64,000 nt of DNA from Diretmus argenteus (lineage: Eukaryota), in the NCBI GenBank assembly GCA_048569125.1, contig CM109057.1, positions 35,006,381 through 35,070,380 on the forward strand, given 5' to 3'. A model generated the notes under the pieces. It was given only the letters and a program-made list of their open reading frames with translations, did no database searches and was not told where the DNA came from. The translations under genes were made by a program, and so were the position numbers. Position 1 is the stretch's first letter. Every line of letters starts with the position of its first letter. Shown one piece after another: positions 3,486-59,317 of this stretch.

Positions 3486-6400
3486 ATGGGGACGAGAGCG
3501 AGTCGCCTGCAGGAAGACCCGGTGGTCCCCTCGTCGGCGTTCAGCGGGAAGGACGGCGCGACGACGGCGACGAAGCGAGAGTCGTACCGGCGGCCCCGCT
3601 GCGCCAGGCCCACCAGTCTCATGGTGGACTTCTCCGGGAGCTTCGAGGACACGGAGGCCAACCGGAGCCGGTCGGAGGAGGGCAGCGACTCGGATGTGGG
3701 TCAGCAGGCGAGCGCCGACGGAAGCCCCGCCGACCACCACCACCATCACCACCACAACCACCAGCACCAGCACCACCACAGCGGCCTCCTCCCGTCCAGC
3801 ATCAGCCAGGCGTCGCCGGACGACAGCAGCGAGGGCAAGCCGGAGGAGGACGGCGGGACTCTGAGCCCGGAGGCTGCGGCGGCTGCGGCTGCTGTCAGTG
3901 CGGAGCATCAGTCCGGGGAGGAGACAGGAGGCCGCGTGCCCCACCGCACCTTTTCTGAGCGGCTGCCCGGGAATCGGCACTCTTCCGGGGGGCGCAATGT
4001 CAGCGCGAGGTCCGCCCGGGTTCGAGGCGCGCACCAGCGGCCGGTGTCGGAGGCTTGGATCGGCCTGTACCGTGTCAACAACCGCCATGGCAGTAAGTTA
4101 AAAACCAGACCTGTCGTGATTTATTTAGATCAGTGGTTCTCAAGCTTTTTCATATCAAGGACCATTATTTAGATCAGTGGTTCTCAACCTTTTTCATATC
4201 AAGGACCATTATTTAGATCAGTGGTTCTCAACCTTTTTCATATCAAGGACCATTATTTAGATAAGTGGTTCTCAACCTTTTTCATATCAAGGACCATTAT
4301 TTAGATAAGTGGTTCTCAACCTTTTTCATATCAAGGACCATTATTTAGATCAGTGGTTCTCAACCTTTTCCATATCAAGGACCATTATTTAGATCAGTGG
4401 TTCTCAACCTTTTTCACATCATGGACCATTATTTAGATCAGTGGTTCTCAACCTTTTTCATATCAAAGACCATTATTTAGTCGTCATTAGAGCCATTTGA
4501 TGAGATTTCACCTCTCAGACCCAAAACTTAGAATATTTTGTTATTGTTGGATAAGATTTTGTCCAGAATTCCAACGCTATGGAGAGATAACAGCCAAACT
4601 TCAATCAAAATAACTCTTCTTCTTCTTCTAATTCTTCTACATTCTCTAATGGTGTAAACTTCTTGTAAATTAGGTAATGCAGATGTTCAACAATAATTTA
4701 ACTCTGAGTGTACAAATGAAACCAAATGGACCCCTAAGTTACAGACCTATAAGGGTCCATTTGGTTCCCAACTACCTATCATTTAGCTGGGGACCACCTG
4801 GAACCCCCCTCAAGGACCACTGGTGGTCCCCAGACCACTGGTTGAGAACCACTGATAGATAGTTAATGGATTTGGAAGGGAGTTGCTTTGTTTGTGTTGA
4901 TTGTCTGTGTCGGTGTCAAGCTCAAGTCAAGATATGATTTAAAGAACAGGAGTAACTTGATTTAGAAAGTAGGTGGAATCCAACAATGTGACCCTCAATC
5001 TGGCCATTGCGAAATTAAAATGGATTATTCAGGGAATTTACATTCCTGAACAGATAATCTCTTCTCTTGTGCTTACACACTGAGACTCCATTGTGCTAAG
5101 TCGCCTGGAGGAGTTCACGTACGAGCCTTTCTGCTACCACAAGGCCCGTTGACACTGGTGATAATATCATAAGGCATAAAGTGTGTAATTACTCAGCATG
5201 ATGCACCTCATTTCTTCTCAAGTGCACAGAAAAGGGAACATGAGCTTGAAGAGGAAATCAAACATGATCCAATCAGCAGGGATGGTGGCGGTGGTGGTGG
5301 TGGGATCAGCAGAACATCTCAAGCCAAAACACAACAATGGTCTGAATATCCCAGGGCAGCCCCCCAAGCAAGTGTAGGGAAGTGGGTCAAAGGCTTCACG
5401 TGCCCACTTGTATGCTGGCAGAGGCTCATAGATGGGGCAGAATGTAGGGCATCTAGGGACCGGTTCCCACATTCTGTCCCATCTACTGACGGGACGCGGC
5501 TCGACTGTCTCTCCAGCCCGAGTCGGTGTTTTGTGAGGTGGATGCAATAATATCTACGATAGGGTTCCCACTCGTCCTGGAAAACCTGGAAAATCAGAGA
5601 CTAGATTTCCAGTCACGGGGAAAAACCTGGAAAATTGACTAAAATGGCCAAATATCCTGGGGGGAAAAATCTATGTTGTCTGATTGTATTTTAGCCCCTC
5701 ACTCAGATCGCCTATGTAAACCTATGTATAACTGTTAGTAGGACTATAGCGGCGCTGCCTAATTTGGGTCCCGCGGGCCACGTTTGAGAGCTTGTAAGTA
5801 AATAAACTAACAACAAGAAGAGGCCTGAGACACTTCATCATGAACCCTGCATCGTTAACAAAGGAGAATAAAACTGGGGGTTAAAGGTGTCGATACTAAG
5901 GACTACTGGTAAATCATACGACCGTTTGCGAGCGAGTGCTGTCCTGGATTGTCAAGAAAAACTCCTGGAAAATGTCCTGGAAAAAGGATTTCCTCGAGAA
6001 GAGTGGGAACCCTGAGAATGTAGGTCATCTAGGGACCGTTTTTCACATTCTGTCCCATCTACTGACGGCCGCGGCTCGGCTGTCTCTCAAGCCCGACTCA
6101 GTGTTTTGTGAGGAGGATGCAATAATATCTACGAGACGGCGATATAGGGTGATTGTATTTCAGTCCCCTTTATTTAGGTAAATCAGGCCGTGTAAGCTAG
6201 ATGTCCTAACGCGGCGCTTGTGCTCAACTTAATGCGTATCATCTATCATTTATGTCTCGCTACTCACTCACTAATCTCAGCGCTATTGTCTCTCTACTCT
6301 GTGCAGATATCCGCTGTCCTTTCTGCTCAAAGCCCTTCCCAGGAGGTCGGATCGAGGATCACTTGTTGAGCTGCCTCACGTCTCCTCCTCTACCGTACAA

Positions 6401-12094: not shown

Positions 12095-13310
12095 TACTTT
12101 TAAAACGGTGTCCACAGGGTCTTAAAAAGGCTTAAATTCGCCGCCCAGGTAGTCCAGCTGTAAAAGACACTGCCTACCAACCCTGAGGTCATAGGTTCGA
12201 TCCTTGGGGTTGCTACCGGCTTGGCTGGGCGTCCCTACAGGCGCAATTGGCCGCGTCTGCAGGTGGGAAGCCGGACACGGGGATTTGTCCTGGTCGCTGC
12301 ACTAGCACCTCCTACTGGTCGGTCGGGGTGCCTGTTCGGTGGGGGGCGGAGCTGGGGAGGATAACGTGTTCCTCCACACGCGCTATGCCTTCCCGGTGAA
12401 ACTCCTCGCCGGCTGGTGTAAAAGAAGCGGCTGGTGACTTCACATGTGTCGGAGGATGCATGTGTTAGTCTACACCCTCCCCAGGCCGACAGTGGGAGGC
12501 GGAACAGCGACCGGGACGGCTTAGGCAGTACAGGGGGAATTGGATATGTAAAAATTGGGAGAAAATGGGGTGAAAATAAAAAAAGGGAAAAAAAGGCTTA
12601 AATTCACAATTTTCAATAAAATGCCTTAAAAAGTATTTTGTGATAAGAATAAGAAAGTTTCTATCTACATTGTTACACAGAGAACGTGGTGAATTATCTG
12701 CCTGATTCTTAAGATGGAACTTCATCGATTCCCGAGGCAGAATTGGGTCAATATTAAAGACGGACCATCTGTATGATTCCATTGAAGAGAACTGCATCTA
12801 CTGAATAGATTTTGGAGACACTTTAACACAGTTAAAATCCTCATTTCCTACATGTTTGCGAAAGGGACGAATGACAGAAAACCTCATTTATTTGACTGTA
12901 ATTGCACAGGAGAGCGAGTACGAGTTTATCAGACGTGATAATAAGAAAGTTTCTAATAGAACATTGAGGTAATTACTGTCTCCAGTTTTTGATTGCGCTT
13001 CACATTATCAGGGTGTCTGCGGGGTCTTAAAAAGTCTTAAATTCTCAATAAGAGGCCTTAAAAAGTCTTAAATTTAATGTTCATAGGTCTTAAATATTTA
13101 GTGGGTCTGTCAAGAGATTAAATAGTAGCTAGGACCTTAATGTTAATACATTCTAGGACTTTTAACATCATTCTAACACTGATATTTACCTACAGTAGGT
13201 ATCACTACTTGTTCTTTTAATAGTACGGCAGTGAAATTGATATTAAATTCCATTCAAAGTGGTCTTAAAAAGGTCTTAAATGTACCTTGTTGAAACCTGC
13301 AGATACCCCG
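12095..13310 (+). mobile_element. Copy of an interspersed 'GGTCTTAAAAAG'-motif repeat family (unclassified non-autonomous element) carrying a nested SINE
   Basis: It is shared with 24130-24800 (reverse complement, roughly 80% identical) and 31105-31455 (reverse complement). Short related fragments are at 43795-43900 and 44530-44620. It contains repeated ggtcttaaaaag / tcttaaat motifs. Confidence 0.6.
12139..12593 (+). mobile_element. tRNA-derived SINE (~455 bp) with A-rich tail, flanked by a target-site duplication
   Basis: The 5' head is tRNA-like (gccgcccaggtagtccagctgtaaaagac...ggttcgatccttgg, giving A/B-box-like elements). The tail is A-rich (aaaataaaaaaagggaaaaaa). The flanks aaaaaggcttaaattc (12122-12137) and aaaaaaaggcttaaattc (12590-12607) form a TSD. 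A second copy at 45251-45706 is roughly 95% identical. Confidence 0.75.
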
Positions 13311-15253: not shown

Positions 15254-23039
<7,786 letters not shown>

Positions 23040-23836: not shown

Positions 23837-42463
<18,627 letters not shown>

Positions 42464-43041: not shown

Positions 43042-46000
43042 ATGACATCAAGAACCTACGGAGCGTGTGTCCTGTGTCAAAGGGCGGTTGTCGTGCGGAT
43101 GATGTGCAGGGTGAGTTGTTTTTGGATGTCATTGAAGACAGCAGCATATCGACAGGGTGATCACACAGCTTTGAAAATAAAGATAACTTAACTGGCTCTA
43201 TTCAAACTGTAATATAATAAGCTTGGTCCAAACCAAATACCCGAACATGGATCACTGATGAATACAACTGGTGCACAAGGAATTTGACCTTGTTACCTGG
43301 TGGTGCTGATACATGACAGATATATAATGCAGGAATGACACACTAGGTGCTGGATACATCTTAACAGGTGAGAATGACATAGACCCACTGCAGATACACA
43401 TTCAGAGTGTGAGTTAATCAATTAAATCAGAAATAATCATTAAATGGGCCGTAGACATGATGGTATTTACCGATACACAGGATCTAATGCAATCCTGTGT
43501 GCTTTTAATAAAGTTATCAGTTCTGCTATTAAACTAGTGTCTGCACTGGAGCATTTTATTTAGGTGACAATTGTTTGTTTGTCTTTTAACTTTTTGTTTT
43601 CAGGGAATGAGTGCTGCAGCGCACCCACAGTCCCAGGTAGATTTCCTAAACGGAGCACCCCACAGGAAGCACCCAGGTGTGACCAACATGAAAACACTGC
43701 GCTTACCTGAGGAACTCCAGAGGGCAGCGCATTCCATTATCAAGAGTAGGTTAACTTACTACTGTGCCTATCAATGGTGCTGTCACAGGGTACCCGCGAG
43801 GTCTTAAAAACTTGAAAAAGTCTTACATTTAGTAGTCATAATTTAAGGCCTTGAAAAGGTATTGAATTTTGTTAACAGGTTTTAAATTTCGTTCATTAAG
43901 TCTTAATTTTTTACTAGGGCTTCAGAACGCAGTCACGCTGTCTATTGATTGAGCGTGTAGATCGATTTGTACGGAAGCGTGTGGCCGCTGACTGTTGCAT
44001 TCAAGTGCCGGGCGCCGAGTCCGACAGATGGTGCGTTCAGGTGAACCCGTAAACTCAGAAATCTAAGACCTGTACCATTTAGTTTGGTTTACATTTTAAT
44101 TTAATGTTCAGACATTTATGTTGACATTCAGATTTTTTTCAATAACAAACTAGATAAAACGTTAATGCCCTGGCAGTGGCAAATAGTAGGCTATTACTTT
44201 TATATTTGACTCGATTACATTGTTTAAATTGAGATAATAAAGATAGACAATAAATCTGCCACTGTGTAAATGGAATACTGCTGTTAAAAAGCACCTTATT
44301 TGTTTAAAGTGCAAACCAAATGTTATTGCACTTTTGTACACACACGTACACCCCTCACAGTTATTGTTTTAAATTCTGTCTTACGATTTAAATATAGTGT
44401 AAATTGTTGCAACAGCTGATGTCATGTTGAGAGATAAGATCTTTGAAGGCTGTATACCTCAGAGCATAGTGTTCATTAAAGTTATGTTTGATTGATTGAT
44501 TTCCTATTTTTTCTTTCATATGCATACCAGGAAAGGTGTGATGTTGGTCTTAAATTTCATTTAAAGTGGTCTTGAAAAGGTCTTAAAAAGTCTTAAATTT
44601 GAGATTAAAAATCCTGGGGGTACCCTGTGTCAACGCAACTCTTTCTGAAGCTTCCCAAGACATTCATGCGAGAAGGTCGTACTCATTCTGGCTTGACTGA
44701 AAAGAGGGGGAGTGCTGTTGGTAGTGACGGTTCCTACTCCTCTGGTTGATTTGATTTGACAGTGTGACTCTGCATTCTCCCCAACTTTAGGAGCTCAGCT
44801 GACAAGGCTGACTGACCGTGCTCAAAGTCTCACCAACTTCCTGTGGAGCAGGAAAAGAGCAGCTGACGATTTGACGCTGAGGAAGAAAGCCATGAGCCTG
44901 GAGAAGGTCCTATGGGAGAAAGAAAGAGAGAAGAGAGGAGGTGAGCGACAAAAAATGCAAAGACAATTGGAGGGAGATTTTTCGATGCAGGAGTGTGTGT
45001 GTCTATGATGCGTTTGAGAAATGTATGTTTTATATTGTAGATCTAGACAATCAAGATCTGAAAGCCCGCGTTAAGCAGAAGGTGCTGTCCGAACTCAAAA
45101 GAACGACGTATCACTGGACTCCCATCAAGTAACTCTCTTGCTCTTTGACCCTTTACATTTTGGGTTTATTCAGATGTGCAAACAGTTGAACTCTCAACTT
45201 TCAAATTTACATTTTATTTAACCTATCTTAACTCAAAATACAAGACAAAGGGCCGCCCAGGTAGTGCAGCGGTAAAAGACGCTGGACTACCAACCCTGAG
45301 GTCGTAGGTTCGATCCTTGGGGTTGCTACCGGCTTGGCTGGGCGTCCCTACAGGCGCAATTGGCCGCGTCTGCGGGTGGGAAGCCGGACGCAGGGATTTG
45401 TCCTGGTCGCTGCACTAGCACCTCCTACTGGTCGGTCGGGGCGCCTGTTCGGTGGGGGCGGAGCTGGGGAGGATAGCGTGTTCCTCCGCACGCGCTATGC
45501 CTTCCCGGTGAAACTCCTCGCCGGCTGGTGTAAAAGAAGCGCCTGGTGACTTCACATGTGTCGGAGGAGGCATGTGCTAGTCTACACCCTCCCCAGGCCG
45601 ACAGTGGGAGGCGGAACAGCGACCGGGACCGCTTAGGCAGTACAGGGGGAATTGGATATGTAAAAATTGGGAGAAAATTGGGTAAAAATCCAAAAAAAAA
45701 GAAAAAATACAAGACAAACATTTAAAAATACACTTTTTATAGCCTTAAATTACATAGTTAGTTTAACTTTGTTTTTACATGGTACCATAACAATCGCTCA
45801 AGCCAACTCATTTCAGTCTAATAAATCACCATGTAAACAAAGCCATATTGTAATGACAGGAGTCCATACTGCATTTATAGTTTTGGGCCTTTTAACAGGT
45901 AATTTCTCCTTTGGTTGAGCCTGAGATGATAATGAGTTTCTACGTTGTGAACCGTCTTAGGTATGATGAAGAGCTGGGCCTGGTTTACATAGCTGCTCGT

Positions 46001-49000
46001 CTGGCCGGGGGCTACGCAGCCGTGAGGAGAGCTCTCAACGAGGTCTGGAGGAGTGTTTTATTCTTCACATTGTTTTTTATCCGTTTAACCTTTGAATCAA
46101 CGTTACCTGTAGAATGATGTAGTAGTGATATTAACTGGACCTAAAGAGTGGCAGCTTTTTGATCCCTGATTCAGCACAGTGATATTCAGTCAGTAATTTT
46201 TCTACCTCATAGCTCTCCTGAGACTATCCCTTCTGCCATTTTCTTTCCTACATGTACATACCGGTAGTTTTTTTTTTTTATCGTTCCAGATAAAGAAGAG
46301 AGATCCCTCCTTTGCTCCTCACTCTCTCCTGGATTTTGGTTCAGGGTTAGGGTCGGCCGTCTGGTTAGTGTTCACATTAACATAGTTAATACATTTACAC
46401 ATCCATCTTGTGAGACTGTACATTCAGTCTCTTTCCTTCCTGTCCCCAGGGCATCACACTCGTGCTGGGGAGACACTTTGAAGGAGATGGTGTGTGTGGA
46501 CAGCTCTGGACCGATGAACACGCTGGCAGAGAGACTCCTCAAAGGTGAAGACAGACAGACAGACACACTTTGTGCTGTCCTTATGTCATATAATATATTT
46601 AAGGAGAAAATCTGAGAATCTTTGTCTTTTGTTGAGCAGGTGACAACGAAAAAGCCGAACCTCACATCAAGCAAGTCTATTTCCGACAGTTCCTCCCTGT
46701 TTCCCCTAAGGTAAGCCTGAGATGGATAAACCTTTTTATGTCAGTAACAACAAACCAGCTCTATATTCATTGGCGGCAAAACCATTGTTTTCACATGTTG
46801 CTTCAAAATGACATCTAGCTGAACAGAATTGGCTTTGTGTGAGTGAGTGTGCCAAAGCCAAAGCCAGCTTCTTCCTGTTTACATTACAAAATACATTTAT
46901 CTTAGGCCCCAACCACACGAGTGCGGATATATTTAGGATTGGCATATATTTCTGTCCGATTCGGCCTCCAAACCACACGAACTCTAGCTTTTCCCCAGAT
47001 ATCCGCACACATCTGAAACCGGATAAAGAAGTGGAGAAATTGGAAAATATCCGATTCAGTGGATTGGTGTGGTTGATATTCTCCGCATATCTAAAAATCC
47101 AGTGACGTACGCACTGTTCGCGCATGACAGATAAAGCCCAAACAAGTCCAAACAAAACGATATTGTGCGTGAAACTCGTCGGTGATGTCCGCATATTTCG
47201 TGTATACAGATTCCCAGTCGATACGTTCTTGGGCTTTGGTGGTTTTGTAGTTTAATATGATGTGAAGTAGCAACTCGACTTCGTCATCTGTCCACATAGC
47301 AATGTTACGTAGCTTCCGGACAACATAATGAACGCATCACACTGCTACGTTTCATTGACCAATCAAGTCGCTTTATTATGAATATTCAATGAGCCACATC
47401 GGATCAGATCAGATTTTTGTGAATCCACTAGTGTGGTCAGATATATTTATTTATCCAGAGTACTCAAATATCCAGATATTTAAATATCCACACTAGTGTG
47501 GTTGGGGCCTTAGTCACTTTAAAACCATGTGCGAAAAGAAGAAAAAAATCTCATTATTATTAAGGCACTTGATTACAATCAGTTTTCCACAGGTTTTTAC
47601 TGTAGGTTCTTTATGATAGTAGTAGGCTGGAGTGGGTAAGATACATGTAGCTCCATCCAAACTCCATCAACAGAAAACCCAAGGAGAAGGACGTCACAGT
47701 GTGCTGGACACACTGTTTGATTGACAGGTGATCTCTGGGAAGAGCAGAGAGGAACACCACAGTGATGAGAGACAAATGAGGATCTCACTTGTCAGTTTGG
47801 AAAATCTATTTTCTATCTATCTTGTCTGAGTTTCTGGAGGCTTCACAACTCAAATCTTGCGTACGTGAAACCCTGACAGTCCAATGTGTCTCGTTTCAGG
47901 TGCAGTTTGATGTGGTGCTAGCGGCATTTTCCCTCTCAGAACTGTCCAGTAAGAAGGAACAGGAAGAGACTGTGGTCACTCTGTGGAGGAAGACCAGCTC
48001 ATATCTGGTTGGTTGAAATAATGACACCACAACACCTCTACAATGTGTATAGTTTCATATATGACGTCTTTGTGAGTTTCTAATGCACACCTAGCTCATT
48101 AAATCATATTTGATCATATTTCATGTCATAGGTGCTGATTGAAAACGGGACCAGAGAGGGCCATCAAATACTTATGGAGGCCAGAGACATTTTATTAAAG
48201 GTATTCCGATATAATAAACTCCATTTCCCAATGTAAAAAGTTTTTCCCAGTTTCTGCCAGCAGACTGATGTTATTCTCTCCATGCTAACTACAGAAACAA
48301 GAGAAGACCGTCCATGATGCCAGAGCAGCGTCAGTGTTTGCCCCCGTACGTGTTTACATTCCACCTCCATAGTTTACAGCATCGTGCATACTTTCAACTT
48401 CCAGTGTTGATTGTGTGATTGCATCCCTTCTGTGCTGTTTTTCTAGTGTCCTCATGAGCTGATGTGTCCTAAGATGGCTCGTCTGCCCTCAGTACCCTGC
48501 AACTTCAACCAATTCTACCTGCCTCTCCCGTTACCTGGGGTAAGATGAAGCTCATGTGCCTTTTCTAATACTTGATTTTCAAATGACGGATAACAGGGAT
48601 GTTCAGCTTACAGGTAAAAGGTGAAAGAGACACTTTTTGAGGCAAACAACCATCCCATGTGTTGCATCCCACGTAGACCTTCATTTATTGAAGAGTCTCT
48701 GGTATACTTGTACTTGTGGTTTAGAGCCAAGTGTTCCTCGATCAGTTATTCAACTGTTAAAAGTAAAACGCATCACTTCCTGTACACCAGAAGGCCGACT
48801 GTACCTGACACCAAGGGGCCAAATTCTTACAATAAATTATAAGAAGTTCGTAAGAATGTTCCTAACTGCAATTCTTGAAAAAAAAGAGTAAGAAGTTCTC
48901 AAATATTATCTTAAGAACATCTAGATGTGTTTCTTAAGAATAAAAATTCAGATTCAGATTTCTTTATTGTTACGTCTGCCTTTACAGTACTAGGTACGGT

Positions 49001-49183
49001 ACACCAGAGTAAAAAACTTGGGCCTGGTCCCTCAACCACGCAGCACAGAAACATCACACAATTGTAAAAGAAACAATATCAAACATAGTAATAGCAATAC
49101 CAATACAATACAGTAGTAGCAGCCCTGTATTAAATAGCAGCAATGGTACTACAAAAAACAGATAGCAGCAATACTAAAGTGGG

Positions 49184-49258
<75 letters not shown>

Positions 49259-51469
49259 GTGCAGGGTCGCATATAATATAAAGTGACAAGTGTGTGTGTG
49301 TGTGTGTGTGTAGTGCAGGGTCGTATATAATATAAAGTGACAATGTACAAAACTTAAGTACAGTCCAAAAGTACAAAAAGCGTATGTGTGTGAGTGAGTG
49401 TCACCTGCGTGTGTGTGAGATTGTGCAGGTGTACTGTACTCAGTCCACTTGTGTGTGCAATGTCAGGCTTCCTTTGATTTTGAACTATTTTGATTATATT
49501 TTTCAAGTACAGTACACTTGACCATAAAAGCAAAATATTTTAGTTTTTTAATGTATTATAGTTTCCTAATGTTTACTATTATTTATTTTTATTTTTATTT
49601 TTTATTTTTTTATTTTTTTTTATTTTGAAAATCAATGGTACATAGCACAATGCAAACGTAAAAAAGAAAAAGAAAACAACACAGATCTACAAAGAACGAT
49701 TTGGGTGCCATACAACCCACCAGCAAAGGCACAAACAAAACAACAGCCAAAAGCAAATAAATAAATAAACAAAAAGATTTAAAAAAGAAATACTAATAAA
49801 TAAACAAATAAATGAAAAACACAACAAACAAAACATAAAAAAGGTATGCTGTTTCATAAACAATACGGCAATCCGAAAATCAAGGCACCAGTACTGTTGT
49901 GTCATAAATCATGCTTGCAAGATCAACCCCACTGACTAGATCCTCGATTGATCAGTCAGTCCATCAACCAATCAATCATTCAAACAGTCCATCAATCAAG
50001 ATATATACACAGTTCATTTCAGAAATCCAGCCGGAAAACACATAATTCCTCATTCCACTGAGCACCGAAGGCCCAAAAGATCCCAAAAAGAACACTGGTC
50101 TCTCATTGAGCGAAAAGAAACTTCAACCTTTAAGGGAGAGACGTGACACAGTCTACTGTTTAAAGTCTGTCTATATATATATTTAAGACAAGTAAGACGC
50201 GCGAACGCGGGAAGCGAACGCAACTCGAAAATAGCAATAAGAAGAATAGAAAGAAATGAGCAATTCTAGAGAAGTGGGTGGTACAGTAAAATAGTGATAA
50301 CAGGGTCGCCAGAGAAGGCTCCATACCGCTAACCAGTGTTGCCACAGATTACTTGAAAAAGTAATCTGATTACCGATTACTCCTTTAAAAAGTAATCGAA
50401 TTACTTTACTGATTACTTGAGTTTCAAAGTAACTAAGTTAGATTACTGTTACTTTATGAATTAAATCCCCACAATCGGTTTTGGCCACACAGTACTTTAT
50501 TGAAAGTGCATTATGTTACAACTGTTACTATTCAATGGTTTTTAACTTGTTTCTACGAACATAGTCAGTCTCTTCTTAAACCTTGTAAATCATTCAATCA
50601 AATCAAAATTCACACCCTAAGCACACCACGCCCCCCCTCGACTGTGTGGGGGTATGAGGCGAGCCCCCCCCTCGTGGACCTCACTATCCGGGGTTAGGGG
50701 CTGGTGTATTGCCTTGCCTGTGTATTGCCGTAGGGGCCGGGGTTTAAGGTGTTTTTCTGCTGCCCAATCTAATTCCGTGGGTTTGTGTGTGCCTGTACGT
50801 GTAGAGGGGGATGTGGGCAACACGTCCGGGGTGTTTTTTTGTGCTTGGGGAGGCCCTGGTGAGCAGTAACCGGCCCTAATGTTAGGCGTGGGGCGCTGAA
50901 GGCCTCGCCTCCTATTGACTTTGTATCGCCGTGGGGGCCGTGTGTTGGGGTGTTTTTCTCCGGTCCAAACTAACTGTGTGGGTTAGTGGGTGACTCTACA
51001 CGTTGAGGGTGAAGTGGGGCACACGTCTGTGGTGTCTTTTGTCCGTGGGGTGTGTGGAAACCCACTGCTGCAGCCGTGTTTGTGTGTCGTGCTCCGGCAA
51101 GCTCTGCCTCCGACTCGCGGTGTGTGCGCATGCGCAGTGGGTCGAATTTTGAATTTTCGCTTTTTCGCGGTTTCGGGTCCGGCCGAATTGTCGGCAAACT
51201 AAGCGGGCTTCGTGTGCCCTAAGCCCGGCTGTGTTTCCGGGCGAGTAGCCGGTGCCAGAGGCTGTTTTCTGCTGCCGCTCACGGCGTAAGCCGCTTGGTG
51301 TTAGCATTAGCCAGGTTCGCCATCATGGCTGCCTTGTTTACGTTGTAGTCCGAGGATTCGCGCATGCGCGAATGCGAGCTCATTCGCTTCCCGCGTTCGC
51401 GCTGTCCGCGGCCAATGAGAGCTTGACTCACATGGGGGCATGGCGCGGCGCGAAGCCCCTCCCAGCGTC

Positions 51470-51500
<31 letters not shown>

Positions 51501-54500
51501 GACGGACGCACAACCCCAGCACGGTTTCATAGTAAGCTCGCTTCGCTCCGGCGCCTACGGCGCCTCCGCTGCGTTCGCAAAAAGTATATTAGAATAGCCT
51601 GGGAATATAGGCAATAGTATCAGACCAGGTGGATAATGTCTCGAGTTTTGCACCATTAATCTTGGCTGTAGATCTTTCTAAAAGGCAGATATAGAACAGT
51701 ACAACCCAAATTATTTTCATTACAATAGTTGGTTCAAACCAACTTTTAAGAATGGTCTTTTTTGCAGCCGTAGAGGCTGCAAGGATGATTCGTTTCCGTG
51801 TATGTGGCAATATAACATTTGGGTTATAACCAAAAAGCCAAAAGGCTGGACAAAATGGGAGATGTTTCTCCAGCAAGTCTGAGATTGTTTGAACAACATA
51901 GACCCAAAGAGTTTTTACTGTTACACAATCCCAAAACATATGCATGTAAGTTCCTACTTTGGAGTGGGGGCACCTGTCACAGAGATCGCTACTTGTCAGT
52001 TTCAGTCTAAATCTACGTTCGGGGGTAAAGTAAACTCTATGAGTAAATTTAAAATGTATCAGCTGATGAGCAAGATTTTTGGACGAGGAAAAGACATTAT
52101 TCCAGATCTCAGGCCAATCCAATTCGAAACCAAGCTCATGAAGGTCTCTATCCCAGACCGATGTAACGGGTAGAGGATTAATGCTATGTTTTAATAACCA
52201 GTCATAAAAAGAACTGACGAACCCAGACTTTGAAGCAGCGTAGAGACGTTTTACAAAAGGATGTGAGGCTAAAGGGCGGTCCCACGGTACTCCATACGTT
52301 TTTAAAGCAGTACGAAGTCTGAGATAGAAAAACCAGGAGGAGCCCGGTAGTGAGTAAGACTCCTTAAGGTCCTGGAAGGAACGGAGACCTTGTTGATTAA
52401 AGATGTCACTAAGAACATTTACACCCTGATGAGCCCATTTGGGGAAGTGGAAAGGCATGGAACCAGTTAAAAGGTTGTTATTGTTCCATATGGGGGTCAA
52501 ATCATGAAACTTACAATTACTACATTGTAAATATTTAACTATTTGATACCAAACATTCAGAAAATTTGACATAATAGATCCCATATGTAACCGTGTCGTC
52601 CTGATCTTTGCACCGCAAAATGGCAGATCTTGAAGTCTAAAGGGGTGACATAAAGCATTCTCAAGAGTTCGCCATGGAACACAGGAGGAGGTATCGAGCC
52701 ATACCATCAGCGATCTTAGCTGGAAAGACCAATAATATATTTTAAAATTGGGTAGAGAAAGTCCACCTCGTGTTTTGGGACTTGTTAAGGTGGAAAAGCT
52801 AATTGAGGGACGCTTACCTTTCCAAAGAAAATTTCTACAAATTGCCTCCAAGTCCTTGAAAAATTTGCCGGGAGGTGAAAGTGGGAGCATGGAGAAAAGA
52901 AAATTGATACGAGGGAGAATATTCATTTTAATGACTGAAATACGGCCATGGAGAGTCATGTGTAAGGGAGACCATTTAATTACGTCACTGCTAATTTTTG
53001 CTAATACTGTGGAATAATTATCTTTAACAATAGAGGGTAGGCTGGGACAGATTGTTATTCCCAAATAGGTAAAAGCGTTATACTCCAAAGTAACAGGTAG
53101 TGATGAGGGGGTGATTTTACCAACTGTAGAATTAAGCGGCATTAAGAGGGATTTTGACCAGTTAATTCTATAGCCAGAAAGTGCCCCAAAAGCCTTGAAT
53201 AGACTTAGTACATGAGAGATAGAAATAGTCAAGTTGGACAAATATAGTATAATATCATCAGCGTAAAGAGAAATAGAGTGAGCTGTTCCTTTGATTGATA
53301 TAGGTAATATATGTTGATGTTGTCTAACAGCTTGTGCCAAGGGTTCTAAAGAGAGTACAAAGAGGCCAGGTGAGAGAGGACAGCCCTGTCTGGTGGATCT
53401 ATGTAGTGCAAACTCAGGTGAACCAGGGTGGCCAGTTTGAACGCGTGCCATGGGACTGGCATACAAGGTACGCACCATATTAATAAAAGTGGGACCAAAT
53501 CCAAAATGTTTTAAGACTGCCCATAGGTAGTCCCACTCCACGCGGTCAAAAGCTTTTTCTGCATCAAGAGAGAGGATGGCAGCTGGCTGTTCTAAAGACG
53601 GTGCTGCTTCAATAATATGCAGTAATCGACGAATATTATCAGAAGCCAAGCGGCCTTTAATGAAGCCCGCTTGGTCTGGATGAACCAAGGACGAGATACA
53701 AGTGTCTAGTCGTCTTGATAAGACTTTTGCATATAATTTGAGATCGCAATTTAAGATTGATATGGGCCTATAGCTGGAGCATTCCAACGGGTCTTTACCT
53801 TTTTTTAAAAGAAGAGAAATGAGTGCGATTTTTTGATCCCGATGGAAGCTTCCAACCATAAGTGAGAAATTTAAAGAGTCCAAGATGATTGGACCAACCA
53901 GGTCCCATAGAGCCACAAGAAGCTCTGGTGGAATGCCATCTAAACCTGGTGATTTTGCTCTTGGCATGGAGTCCAAAGCATCTTTTAATTCAGTTAAGGT
54001 AATAGGAGCCTCAAGCTTAGACTTCTGCTCTGCTGAAAGAGTGGGTAGATTTAGAGGGTTTGAAAATGACAATATTGCCGAATTATCTTTATGAGACTCA
54101 GATGTATATAATGTAGAGTAATAAGAGGTAAAAGTTTCATTAATTTGTGAAGGAAGTGTGCATAATTCTCCGTTAGCATTTTTGATCATATCTATAGATG
54201 CTAGTTGTTCAGATTGCTTCAGTCTCCAAGCCAGAAGTTTACTTGGTTTCTCTGCATTTTCATAAATATCTTGACGTGTTCTAAGATGCAGGAACTCAGC
54301 ATTAGCAGTTGTTAGAGATTTTAACTCTGATTTTACTATAGATAATTCTCTGTCGATTCTCAGAAAAAGAAGATTTCTGAAGGGATTCGAGACGGGTTAT
54401 TTCATTCTCCAGAGATATAAATTTACTTTTGCGTTCTCTACTTTGGTGCGAGGAGAAAGAAATACATATACCTCTCATACAACACTTAGTGACTTCCCAC

Positions 54501-57500
54501 AAAGTGTGAGGGTTAATCCCTGATTGTGAATTAAACGCTAAAAACTCTCTCAGTTCGTTGGTGACTTTGTTCAGAAAATCAGTATTCTGCAACAGAAAGA
54601 TGTTGAAACGCCACCTGTCCAGACGCGGTTTCAAATGACATAATGACAGGTGAATGATCGGAGATAACCATTGATAGGATATTCGTATGAGAGATACATT
54701 TTAAAAAGGTTGGAGAGATTAGTATATAGTCTATTCTGGAGAATGAATGATGGCGAGATGAATAAAAGGTGTAATCCTTCGTGGTTGGATTTTGTATACG
54801 CCAGACGTCAACAATATTCAGATCCTGTAAGAATGAATTAAAGTAGGAAGAGCATGCTCTTCTTGCAGAGGAGTCAGGATTAGTTGAATCAATTGAAGGG
54901 TCCGCTAATAGATTAAAATCTATGATGTGTACTGAGTCAGCAAAGTCCAATAATTTCAGCTTGATACCATCAAGGAATACAGAATTAAACACATTAGGTG
55001 CATAAACTGAGGACACACAGATCTTTGTTCCATTGAGGATTAAAGTTGCATAGCAAAACTTTCCCTCCACATCTCCACCTGAGATACCAATCTTAATATT
55101 GAGTTTACTTTTTACAACAATTAATACACCCTTTGATTTATTAGGGGCACAGGAATATGATATAACATTATATATTTTATTTTTAAATCTATTTATATCT
55201 ATCTGTTTCAAATGAGTCTCTTGCAGGAAAGCCAGATCAACATGCTTGAGTTTTAAATATTCAAGGCATTTCAGTCTTTTTACTGGTGAGTTCAAACCTC
55301 TTACATTCAGAGTCATGAAATTAAAGGTAGCCATAAGATGGATATGTGAAAGGATAGTGATAGATTATAGAGATCATATACCATATTTGGATACAGCATG
55401 GACAACAAACAAAACAGAAGACAAATAAAGCAAAATGAAGTAAAAGTAAAAAGTAAACTAAAATAAAAAAATAAAGGGATAAATAAAAGTGTGCAAAGTA
55501 GGCTATGTACCCATAAATAGCTGATTATTAGCTGTGAAGAAGAAACAATAGGAAACCGGTATGCCAGGGGACAGTGTTGAGAAGCCCCTGTGAGAGCACC
55601 GGTAAATGAGAGCATATAAGAGCTCATTGGGCTACTGACACAGCAGGGAGGAGCGATCTACAAACTAATAAAGAGAAAATAAATACATTGTTTACAGTGA
55701 TTTTTTTTTTACTTTATTTATTAACATGCACTAAAGTAAAGTGTTTATTTAAACAGATTTTTAGTTTTTAATTTTGTTCTATTTCCTTCCTCTTCCCAAC
55801 ACACTGCAGTCACACGACCAAACATAATAATATAGAGGGGCAGTAGCCTAATAGAAATAAGTCCGCCTCCTAATGGCTCATTTAGACTGCATAGTAAAAT
55901 AATAGAAAAGAATGAACATATTTTCGTGAAACAAGACAACAGCAATTAGATGACCATTTCCAGAGGAGCGACAGTAAGCAAGTGGAGGACCAGGCTATAA
56001 ATTGTCCAAAAAAAAGAAAGAAAAAGTCATCATGATGATGTTATTCATTCATAAATCGGATTAAACACTGGGAGCTACATATCAAGTCGGTGTTTCTGAG
56101 GATTGTAGCAATGTGATGATCCCAAGTTGAGAGAAAATAGAAGAGGGGTTGTAGGTTTATGTATAGCCTATGCGCTGGACCCACTGTAAGAGCGCGCGTG
56201 CGTACATGTCCGTGACCGTGTGTGGGGTACGTCTGTGAACGTCTATCAGAGTCTGTAAGTGTGTGAGCGATTGTGAATGTCTGTAGGTGTAGGAAGAAGA
56301 AAAACAAGGTTCACCTCACGCAAAAAAATATTCAGACTGTATGTATTTCAACTCACTGCAGCTCAGCCAAGAATTTCTCAGCATCTTCCGGAGTTTCATA
56401 CAGGCATTGCTTGTTGTTATGGGACACCCTCAACTTCGCTGGGTAGATGAGGAAGTGTTGGATGCCTTTCTTACGCATACTGAACATCACTTGGGCGAAA
56501 GCTTTCCTTAGCCTGGAAGTGGAAGGAGAGTAGTCGGCAAATAAGAGTAGCTTGTGGCCATCATGTGAGAGAGAAGATCCAGCTGCTCTGTAGGCGTCCA
56601 TAATAGCTTTCCTGTCAGAGTAGCGGAGAAGTTTGAAGATCAATGTCCGGTTGACGCTCTTACCATCCGATTTTGCAGCAGTATAAATCCGATGTGCTCT
56701 TTCAATCTCCATCTTCCCATGGGATGAAAGACTGGGCAGCCAAACTGGTAGATGACGCTGGAGAAATGCGATGGCATCACCCCCCTCCGCTCCCTCGGGT
56801 AGAAAAGTTAATCTCAAATTAGATCGACGGGTGTAATCTTCCATTTCGGCCAGGCGATCTGTCAGATTTTTGATTTTTTTCTGTGTTGGATCCAATTGTA
56901 TCCCTTTGTTTGCGCACATCAGCCTGGATTAAATCAGTGCGGCTTGATAAAGTTATGACAGACTTGTTGAGAATGACAAGCTCCGCTTCAATCTTGGAAG
57001 TCTTGGATTTCATGCACCCCAAATCTACCTGCATCGCCGTGACTGTTGCGCTGGTGTTACTGACCTCTTTGCGGATATTATCCAGAGACTCCTTAATTTC
57101 TGTGACTGCTGTAGAGATCCCAAGAACAACAGATAAACCAGAAGTGCCATCCGCGGCGGCGGCGGCTGAATCAGCTAGGTGCTGGGATGGATTTGTTTGG
57201 AGAACGCCGTCAAAGGCTGTTTTTGGCTTTTTGTCATCTTGGTAAGAAGCGGGCGACGGAGTAGATGGCTCCATATTATCGTTGTTTCTTTTAGTAGAGT
57301 TAGGCATTAACATGCGTGCCAGATGATTAAATAAAACACTGTAAATAGCGTTGGAAAAGTTTGTAGATCCGAGAGCTGTGCTCCTACACCACCATGCTGC
57401 TCAGTTTACTATTATAACCCAATAAATCAATAAAGCATCTTACCTGTTGGGACTGTGAGTCTCTCCTTACTTTAAAAAGTTATTTACCATGATTTTTAAG

Positions 57501-59317
57501 AAAAACAATTTCAAGAATTTGAATCCTTAACTTTTTTCTTAACATTAACAGAACTTTTTTGGGGGGGAATACAACATTTTCTTAACTTTGTTTCTTAAGT
57601 AAGTATATAAGAAGAAAATAACAATTAAGAAGAAATGTTTTGTGATTTTGGCCCCAGGTGCTGAAAACAGCAATTGTAAAAGCTTTCATGAGCTGTGTAT
57701 GGGATGTATCACTGTTGCGTTAATATGAAAATGTCACGATGATTGATTATGGATAACAGATGCCCAATCAATTGTTGTTTTTTGCAGCACCACGACCGTC
57801 AGACAGAGAAGTTCAGCTACCTGATTCTCAGCCGGACAGAACCAGTAGAGGTGGACAGAGAGGGTCTGGACTGGGGCCGGCTGATAGCGCCGGTCCTGCG
57901 CAGATCCAGGCATGTCCACTGTCAGACGTGCTGCCCCGACGGAGAACTCAGACGGGTGGTGGTGACGGCTAGAAAACACAGCAGGTAAAAAGCTCCTCTC
58001 ACAGGTCACATGTCCTAGATCATCAGCAGGGACGTGGTTGACCGTAAACCTGCCTGAACTCAGTTTATCCACCATAAAATCTGAGTTACTTTTCATTTGT
58101 GGAAGTTCACGCACCGTCTTAAGTTAATATACCTAATTCTATGTTCAGTGTCTAGTTATTTAACTTTTTTGGATCACTTGCTAAGGGGGTAAATTATAAA
58201 TATATGCAGAGAAAACACCTTTTACCAACCTAATTAATATGTGTTTCATACAAACACCACCCTACCTGTTTTGAGCTTAGAATCAGCTACTGTATGTTAA
58301 AGGAATAGTTCACCAAAAAATGATAATTAAGATTTCATCTACTCACCCTCTCGCCGATAAGAGGTGTGGTGTACTTTTTCCGTTCTCAAAACGCTCAACA
58401 GGGGAAACAGTTTTCAGTGGTAGTCCATATAACGGCTGTGGAGGGGGATCAAATGTGAAACCTAAAAAGTATCCCAAAAAAGCCTTCAAAGTACTCCAAA
58501 CTTCTCGTCCGTCACAACCGATATGTCCAGAATGCGCGAGATGCCGAAAAACGGGTGCCATTTTTCGGCAGTGACAACGTGGATATCAAGCTCTAGTCTG
58601 GTCAATATTTAGCCTATAAACATACAAGAAATGCAGTTTATTCACATAATTCTGCAACTTGCGGGTTCCGGACATATCAGTTGTGGCGGACGAGAAGTTT
58701 GGAGTATTTTGAAGGCTTTTTTGGGATACTTTTAGGTTTCGCATTTGATCCCCCTCCACAGCCGTTGTATGGACTACCACTGAAAACGGTTTCCCCTGTC
58801 TAGCGACACGAGTGTTTTGAGAACGGAAAAAGTACACCACACCTCTTATCAGCAAGAGGGTGAGTAGATGAAATCTTAATTATCATTTTTCGGTGAACTA
58901 TTCCTTTAATTTAACACTTTCTCTCTTATACAGTGGATCATTAAGTGCAGAATAATTAAATTACGACAAAGCATTTCAAGTTTAACATCAGGCAAAGACT
59001 AAAGGCTGTATAACACTGTACTTGGGTCATTTCAGACAGTGTCTATGATTTTTTTTATCAGATTGATGTAAGCTGATTGAAAATATTATGGAATCTCTTG
59101 AAATTGACTTAAAATCATGGTAGTGTTTGTGAGTGGTTCGCCTTGAGTTAGCTCCTCACTGGAGTTTGTTGTTGGCCTCATTCTTTACCACTGTTATTGT
59201 GTTGTGCTTCCTCCTATCAGAGATGTGTACCGCTGTGCCCGGAGCAGCGACTGGGGAGATCAGCTGCCGATCATTGAGCAAGAAGAGGCGGACGACATCC
59301 ACAGTGATTCAGAGTGA
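43042..59317 (+). CDS. mettl17: Methyltransferase-like protein 17, mitochondrial (Rsm22-family SAM-dependent methyltransferase), ~461 aa
   Basis: There are 14 coding exons: 43042-43110, 43604-43745, 44791-44940, 45041-45128, 45961-46042, 46290-46363, 46450-46544, 46640-46710, 47900-48007, 48132-48200, 48295-48345, 48447-48539, 57788-57984 and 59221-59317 (stop TGA at 59315-59317). All junctions are GT-AG with consistent phases. Two donors are weak (GAG|GTCTGG and TG|GTTAGT). The translation matches human METTL17 as I recall it along its length: ...[36 protein letters not shown]...[51 protein letters not shown], the SAM-binding motif [77 protein letters not shown]...[33 protein letters not shown], ...[12 protein letters not shown]... 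and [52 protein letters not shown]. Confidence 0.88.
45251..45706 (+). mobile_element. tRNA-derived SINE, second copy of the 12139-12593 family
   Basis: It is roughly 95% identical to the copy at 12139-12593 and has a poly-A/A-rich tail (ccaaaaaaaaagaaaaaa). It lies in METTL17 intron 4. Confidence 0.75.
46905..47509. mobile_element. Non-autonomous DNA transposon (~600 bp) with ~20 bp TIRs and a Myb/SANT-like ORF remnant
   Basis: The left TIR is ggccccaaccacacgagtg (46905). The right TIR is cactagtgtggttggggcc (ending 47509). The internal minus-strand ORF 47091-47297 encodes [35 protein letters not shown], which is Myb/SANT- or MADF-like, as found in Harbinger/PIF-type elements. It lies in METTL17 intron 8. 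Confidence 0.55.
49188..49312. repeat. (GT)n microsatellites (two runs) with a short duplicated flank
   Basis: (gt)n x ~35 at 49188-49258, then gtgcagggtcgcatataatataaagtgacaa repeated with a second (gt)n run. Confidence 0.9.
50196..51407. repeat. GC-rich cassette bounded by 24 bp inverted repeats, with internal ~200 bp tandem duplication and promoter-like motifs
   Basis: The left inverted repeat is gacgcgcgaacgcgggaagcgaa (50196-50218). The right one is ttcgcttcccgcgttcgcgctgtc (51384-51407), its inverted complement. Two tandem G-rich units lie inside, at about 50700-50860 and 50910-51060. The NRF1-type palindrome gcgcatgcgc occurs twice (about 51125 and 51358-51372), and a CCAAT (ggccaatgag) lies at about 51410. 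Confidence 0.4.
51470..57430 (-). mobile_element. L1-clade LINE (~6 kb), degenerate: frameshifted ORF1 and ORF2, antisense in METTL17 intron 12
   Basis: Minus-strand ORFs 56353-56919 and 56819-57313 are the two halves of ORF1p (coiled-coil plus RRM-like), split by a frameshift. ORF 54579-55334 is the APE-type endonuclease ([22 protein letters not shown]...FLQETHL, L1 signature). ORF 54302-54634 is the linker. ORF 51589-54189 is the reverse transcriptase (...[18 protein letters not shown]..., YADDIILYL, i.e. the FADD box) with a C-terminal domain. At least two frameshifts separate the endonuclease and the reverse transcriptase. The 3' end carries a (GACG/GACA)n tetranucleotide tail at 51471-51510. 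Confidence 0.8.
58298..58910. mobile_element. Palindromic MITE or long inverted repeat (arms ~275 bp, loop ~60 bp)
   Basis: 58298-58575 (aaaggaatagttcaccaaaaaatgataattaagatttcatctactcaccctctcgccgataagaggtgtggtgtactttttccgttctc...) is almost exactly the reverse complement of 58635-58910. It lies in the last METTL17 intron, between the exons at 57984 and 59221. Confidence 0.75.

Follow-up and report, generated by a model that had tools for sequence, protein, structure and literature searches.

What is the long inverted repeat that lies in the last coding intron of mettl17 in the silver spinyfin, the fish Diretmus argenteus, and did it arise in place or arrive from elsewhere? The feature belongs to a 64,000-nt stretch of DNA (assembly GCA_048569125.1, contig CM109057.1, positions 35,006,381 to 35,070,380 of the forward strand), which we call the window and to which all coordinates below refer. 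A first-pass annotation had described it as a near-perfect palindrome of recent origin, either a palindromic miniature inverted-repeat transposable element (MITE) or foldback element, or a locus-specific inversion duplication. It had further proposed that the feature, when transcribed with the mettl17 pre-mRNA, would form a hairpin open to Dicer or ADAR, and that as DNA it would be a potential cruciform or fragile site. We conclude with high confidence that it is a single copy, now a relic, of a non-autonomous cut-and-paste DNA transposon, namely a foldback MITE of T2/Kolobok type with TTAA as its target, in kind like the zebrafish element Angel. The guess of a palindromic MITE or foldback element is thereby borne out by the TTAA duplication, the termini, an empty orthologous site and a related repeat family.

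Gapped alignment of the left half of 58297-58910 to the reverse complement of the right half showed a long inverted repeat, with 235 matches, 16 mismatches and 10 gap columns. Arm complementarity amounts to 93.6% at aligned bases and 90% with gaps counted; the repeat is where the first-pass annotation had placed it and exceeds the 85% which that annotation had itself set as a threshold. The sizes given there need correction, as the arms measure about 250 nt rather than about 275, and the spacer 101 nt rather than about 60. "Near-perfect" is somewhat generous given a 9-nt indel between the arms, near 58397-58401 of the left arm. We infer this difference to be a deletion in the left arm, its polarity being taken from related copies (alignment A1, described below). 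The parts of the element are as follows.

58297 to 58300, no strand: left copy of the TTAA target-site duplication, read from the sequence
58301 to 58905: whole element, 605 bp, between the two TTAA copies
58301 to 58323, + strand: left terminal inverted-repeat core, AGGAATAGTTCACCAAAAAATGA, opening with the T2/Kolobok AGGRR motif
58301 to 58548, + strand: left arm of the foldback, 248 nt, from the gapped arm alignment
58549 to 58649, no strand: non-palindromic central spacer forming the hairpin loop, 101 nt, from the arm alignment and folding
58650 to 58905, - strand: right arm of the foldback, 256 nt, reverse complement of the left arm
58883 to 58905, - strand: right terminal inverted-repeat core, TCATTTTTCGGTGAACTATTCCT on the + strand, ending in AGGAA on the - strand
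58906 to 58909, no strand: right copy of the TTAA target-site duplication, read from the sequence

The core columns 58301-58323 are invariant or nearly so across 24 related metagenome copies (alignment A1), and the central spacer holds a small local hairpin, GCCGAAAAA..TTTTTCGGC.

The ends of the element and its flanks read ..GTATG TTAA AGGAATAGTTCACC ... GGTGAACTATTCCT TTAA TTTAAC... The direct repeat on either side is TTAA and no longer than these 4 bp, since the adjoining bases differ at both ends, and AGGAA stands at both termini (AGGAA...TTCCT). T2-MITEs are recognised by a TTAA target and a terminal AGGRR motif and are regarded as non-autonomous members of the Kolobok superfamily, itself marked by a TTAA target and an RR terminus (PMC6004289); a teleost Kolobok MITE with a TTAA duplication has also been described (PMC8327909). 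The Diretmus element shows the same combination of TTAA duplication and AGGRR terminus, and it is short (605 bp) and non-coding. Its 97-aa open frame had no homologues among 5.8 billion proteins, and its open reading frames (ORFs) gave no significant Pfam match.

The other TTAA-specific superfamily is piggyBac, whose terminal repeats characteristically begin 5'-CCC/CCY. Movement by a piggyBac-superfamily transposase rather than a Kolobok one would also leave a TTAA duplication, and such an origin gains some room from the fact that the superfamily is read from the termini only, no transposase partner having been identified. Those termini, AGGAA...TTCCT, fit the AGGRR/RR ends of T2-MITEs and Kolobok elements (PMC6004289) and are not CCC/CCY...GGG. 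Piggybac-derived MITEs thus share the TTAA duplication with the Diretmus element and differ in their ends (CCC..GGG as opposed to AGG..CCT); we rejected this candidate and regard a piggyBac origin as quite unlikely.

The history of the site is recorded in related fishes. The Diretmus intron, minus the element and one TTAA, was compared with its orthologue in the METTL17 locus of Centroberyx affinis (L121). Diretmus TTTTGAGCTTAGAATCAGCTACTGTATGTTAATTTAACACTTTCTC, which spans the junction, aligns with Centroberyx TTTTGTGCATAGAATCAGGTATTGTCTGTTAATTTAAAACTTGCTC in a 46-nt ungapped match of 84.8% identity (E = 1.3e-9; L121 9951-9996), and more matching segments follow in colinear order on either side of it in the Centroberyx intron. 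At the orthologous position Centroberyx affinis has a single TTAA and no element, and in Myripristis murdjan (L122) the flanks are contiguous at the site (..ACTGTGTTGAATTTACACTT..). The empty-site evidence comes from these two species, the introns of Polymixia and Sebastes being unalignable and silent on the site. No copies of the element or of the family consensus were found in the METTL17 loci of Centroberyx, Myripristis, Polymixia and Sebastes (about 46 kb). Because the orthologous site is empty, we interpret the event as an insertion with TTAA duplication in the Diretmus lineage and not as an in-situ inverted duplication.

Relatives of the element were sought by scanning metagenome contigs with the pattern TTAAAGGRATAGTTCACCNAAAAATGA, which yielded the related loci L001-L120. 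At least 120 metagenome contigs match this pattern, and among the matches listed all come from records MDSQ01 and MDSP01. An exon of sarcomeric myosin heavy chain lies on one of these contigs (L032; E = 1e-61), and we therefore take the MDSQ01/MDSP01 contigs to be vertebrate host DNA. We treat their source as a second fish. The flanks of the related copies diverge exactly at TTAA. None of the 13 complete copies (109-808 bp) has a duplication beyond TTAA, and in 11 of them TTAA is present at the end that the search pattern had not fixed. In alignment A1, which covers about 130 nt of both Diretmus arms and of 24 related copies, 36 columns are invariant, and over the outer ~100-130 nt the pairwise identity between the Diretmus arms and related copies is 73-81%. 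Since the inner sequences pair over ~50-330 nt at 68-89% in the 12 related copies tested (364-808 bp), the foldback architecture is a family trait. The MDSQ01/MDSP01 family thus resembles the Diretmus element in its homologous outer ~100-130 nt, in having TTAA on both sides and in its long complementary arms, whereas inner arm and spacer are unrelated.

Two further classes of element were considered and rejected. A Tc1/mariner MITE would have a TA duplication with variable sequence outside the TA, whereas the direct repeat here is exactly TTAA and TTAA recurs at the unforced ends of the related copies, as counted above. In foldbacks of the Drosophila FB type the arms consist of tandem subrepeats, and Tandem Repeats Finder found no array in 58200-59000 at a minimum score of 30.

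A separate observation concerns the related contig L101. On its - strand, in an ORF from 911, a related-MITE terminus (translated ..KGIVHPKMKIQSLSTH..) lies in frame with a Ty3/gypsy-like reverse transcriptase, identified by eye, suggesting that a MITE copy lies against or within a retrotransposon.

Several points weigh against our conclusion. In the 64-kb window, blastn and a 15-mer search allowing 2 mismatches returned one copy only, that is, just the two arms. Neither the spacer nor the inner ~150 nt of either arm has a match in the metagenome, viral or genome contigs searched, and internal 25-32-nt patterns likewise had no matches in viral contigs or genome contigs. No autonomous element with matching termini was found in the window or the related loci. 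Finally, we infer the Kolobok superfamily from the TTAA and AGGRR signature alone, and also infer the transcription, in vivo folding and editing of the element. The single copy in the window and the unmatched inner arms are what would be expected if intron sequence had been duplicated in inverted orientation at this locus by fold-back replication or repair. Such an event is at odds with boundaries that form a clean 4-bp TTAA duplication, with an alignment to Centroberyx and Myripristis that is restored across the junction once the element is removed, and with arms neither of which derives from the surrounding intron. It is also at odds with termini that are both homologous to the dispersed MDSQ01/MDSP01 repeat family. 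The inversion duplication that the first-pass annotation had kept as an option is refuted by the duplication, the empty site in both species and the termini, and we give it hardly any credence.

Palindromes are also a known failure mode of long-read assemblies, in which a chimeric fold-back read produces a spurious inverted duplication. Against such an artefact stand the divergence of the arms, 6.4% of sites plus an indel, and the uniqueness of the 101-nt spacer between them. Moreover, the arm ends carry a transposon-type terminal repeat with its TTAA duplication, and the same architecture is found in independent MDSQ01/MDSP01 contigs. We consider the probability of an artefact to be practically nil.

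The foldback MITE copy that we favour has had some time to decay. The 16 arm mismatches comprise 12 transitions and 4 transversions, and 8 of the 16 are CpG-to-TpG/CpA changes. CpG observed/expected is 0.91 in the element versus 0.30 in the flanking intron. Arm complementarity is 68-85% in all but one of the tested MDSQ01/MDSP01 copies, as against 90-94% in Diretmus; because its arms are better paired than those of most related copies, we regard this copy as relatively young, not fresh. The recent origin put forward in the first-pass annotation thus holds as relative youth and fails as a fresh insertion, since the arms have diverged at 6.4% of aligned sites, mostly through CpG transitions. If the element was inserted as a perfect palindrome, each arm has since acquired about 3% substitutions. 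The sense RNA has a G·U pair at 7 of the 12 transitions and none at the other 5; there is thus no strand bias towards G·U, nor any hint that selection has kept sense-strand pairing. As far as the base changes tell, the arm differences look like neutral decay.

A mechanism can be proposed on this basis. An autonomous element would have provided, in trans, a Kolobok-family DDE transposase that recognised the conserved terminal ~25-60 nt, and the MITE would then have been excised and inserted at a TTAA in the mettl17 intron. This insertion would have taken place on the Diretmus branch, once that had diverged from those leading to Centroberyx and Myripristis. The copy would owe its long palindromic arms to its family and not to events at the mettl17 locus, and post-insertion neutral decay would have consisted mainly of CpG transitions together with one 9-nt deletion. 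Transcription of the element would occur solely within the mettl17 pre-mRNA, from which it would be lost when the intron is spliced out, and in that transcript the copy could fold into a double-stranded RNA (dsRNA) stem of about 250 bp.

The hairpin foreseen for the sense pre-mRNA emerges from the folding calculation as a predicted dsRNA stem of about 250 bp. The + strand RNA is predicted to form one long stem, with a minimum free energy of -443.5 kcal/mol versus -153 +/- 6 for dinucleotide shuffles (z = -49), and the DNA-level folding energy is -270.7 kcal/mol (z = -41). Chance does not come near to accounting for such a structure. With a spacer of 101 nt, which works against cruciform extrusion, cruciform formation or fragility at the element, itself speculative, is unlikely to be notable.

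What becomes of such a stem can be judged in part from other systems. Many zebrafish repeat families are approximate palindromes that self-fold and are highly edited (PMC8096273), and by analogy adenosine-to-inosine (A-to-I) editing of the intronic dsRNA by ADAR is plausible, the stem being a likely substrate. The METTL17 protein should be unaffected. Products of Dicer from the hairpin are possible and find no support here. Hairpin-triggered "SOS splicing", a recently described process that is reported to remove transposons from mRNAs (PMC12779559), is conceivable as a further fate and would be without consequence for an intronic copy. Rfam searches gave no matches in the window at the gathering score, and a permissive search over the element returned only the plant MIR841 precursor (58493-58704, 27.9 bits versus a gathering score of 200). 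This match is the generic attraction of long hairpins and is no evidence for a microRNA (miRNA).

A stronger claim, compatible with a MITE origin, would be that the foldback has been exapted as a hairpin-RNA locus, retained for miRNA-like or endogenous small interfering RNA (endo-siRNA) output or for ADAR-edited regulation of mettl17. It could draw on the very stable predicted stem, on the self-folding and heavy editing of the zebrafish palindromic repeats cited above and on two exonised Angel hairpins in zebrafish long non-coding RNAs that show compensatory changes (PMC3636048). The high CpG retained in the element (0.91 versus 0.30) might be counted in its favour too, although relative youth explains this equally well. 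No Rfam family reaches the gathering score, however, MIR841 being a weak match only, and the changes follow a neutral CpG-decay spectrum with no excess of sense-strand pair-preserving substitutions (7 of 12 transitions). The element is also absent from the orthologous intron of Centroberyx and Myripristis, and hence it is not conserved. We see only a slim chance of exaptation. Just as doubtful is a more active version, in which a young and possibly mobile Kolobok-type foldback family would produce dsRNA that leads to endo-siRNAs, heavy A-to-I editing or hairpin sensing, modulating mettl17 or targeting sister copies in trans. In the first-pass annotation, a multicopy element with ordinary terminal inverted repeats had been held to speak against a special role; the ordinary TTAA and AGGRR termini and the multicopy relatives described here weaken that special reading.

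As a foldback MITE, the element can be set beside several known systems. Angel (Izsvak et al. 1999, as described in PMC3636048 and PMC5172404) is a MITE-like zebrafish element of high copy number with long inverted repeats, a stable RNA stem-loop, "T2 motifs" at its ends and a central domain that forms the loop. Angel and the Diretmus element are alike in having long inverted repeats that give a stable stem-loop and T2-type ends, a likeness drawn from the published descriptions of Angel. The Diretmus element, at 605 bp, is longer than Angel, which we take to be about 325 bp, and zebrafish repeats that presumably begin with TTAAAGGGATAGTTCACCCAAAAATGAAAATT are only an unconfirmed lead. Literature string searches for the terminal sequence returned only a zebrafish primer containing GGGTGAACTATCCC. 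The Xenopus T2 MITEs (e.g. Xmix/T2-A1; PMC6004289) share with the Diretmus element the TTAA duplication, AGGRR, small size, an inverted repeat and the lack of an ORF; they are likened to it by these features, and differ in that the Diretmus host is a teleost and its inverted repeat spans about 250 nt per arm and is not a short terminal repeat. Among teleosts, the Kolobok MITE in the sablefish gsdfX promoter is 408 bp long, has 12-bp terminal repeats, is linked to transposase-bearing copies and has a demonstrated regulatory effect (PMC8327909). Both it and the Diretmus element are short non-autonomous derivatives with a TTAA duplication. The sablefish element belongs to a multicopy family, and the MDSQ01/MDSP01 relatives of the Diretmus element are multicopy too; the regulatory effect and the transposase link are particulars of the sablefish element.

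In practical terms, the region is to be masked as a T2/Kolobok-type MITE insertion, and not carried forward as an RNA-gene candidate or a structural anomaly. The element is an ordinary kind of fish repeat with little significance beyond annotation; its Diretmus subfamily may be uncatalogued, and there is nothing unexpected about it. The insertion together with the orthologous empty site provides a lineage marker that separates Diretmidae from Berycidae and Holocentridae, and a deep-sea trachichthyiform is shown to carry Angel-like foldback MITEs that target TTAA. Being self-complementary, the element likely adds, as other fish repeats of that nature do, to the endogenous dsRNA pool handled by ADAR.

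The host intron was identified from the surrounding coding sequence. Concatenated + strand exons match human METTL17 (PDB 8csp chain 7, 8csp_7; E = 2.7e-95) and Pfam Rsm22. Their best database match is METTL17 of Diretmus argenteus itself (P0001), and tblastn of this protein on the window is 100% identical in the exon cores. The end of the gene is arranged as follows.

57761 to 57984, + strand: penultimate coding exon of mettl17, from tblastn of P0001 and spliced translation, ending ..TARKHS
57985 to 59220, + strand: last coding intron of mettl17, host of the element, GT..AG, 1236 nt, from tblastn and spliced translation
59221 to 59317, + strand: last coding exon of mettl17 including the stop, with the stop codon at 59315-59317

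Splicing from 57984|57985 (GT) to 59220|59221 (AG) restores the METTL17 C-terminus, and the first-pass placement in the last METTL17 intron agrees with both the exon matches and this spliced translation. The element sits mid-intron, with 316 nt between it and the donor and 315 nt between it and the acceptor.

The preceding mettl17 intron (48540-57760, 9.2 kb) contains an apparently full-length long interspersed nuclear element (LINE) at 51589-57313 on the - strand. It comprises an ORF1-like ORF (56353-57313), an endonuclease ORF (54579-55334; Exo_endo_phos) and a reverse-transcriptase ORF of 866 aa (51589-54189; RVT_1), and these long open frames suggest that the copy is young. Downstream of mettl17 on the minus strand lies an SDR39U1-like gene. 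The order PARP-like (WWE/WGR/PARP)-METTL17-SDR39U1-like, the last on the opposite strand, is kept in Centroberyx, Myripristis, Polymixia and Sebastes (L121-L124), and its METTL17 to SDR39U1-like part is seen in the Diretmus window. Centroberyx affinis has a second copy of the last METTL17 coding exon (L121 12725-12841, 79% identical). It lies about 2.3 kb downstream of METTL17, in the stretch covered by the SDR39U1-like gene, which runs in the opposite direction, and it has no counterpart in the Diretmus window.

The window also holds repeats of other kinds. A dispersed 457-bp repeat occurs at 12140-12593 and 45252-45707 with 95% identity, the second copy lying in an early mettl17 intron. A blastn self-comparison gave the further pairs 12819-13284/24176-24707 (inverted), 24174-24476/31123-31435 and 25316-25571/33009-33285. 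A self-complementary simple-sequence tract of about 275 bp at 17718-17992 swamps inverted-repeat searches. Three minisatellite-like tandem arrays lie at 4121-4480, 20004-20377 and 42039-42327, and long CA/TG microsatellites at about 30-52 kb are visible as HTHT.. and CVCV.. frames.

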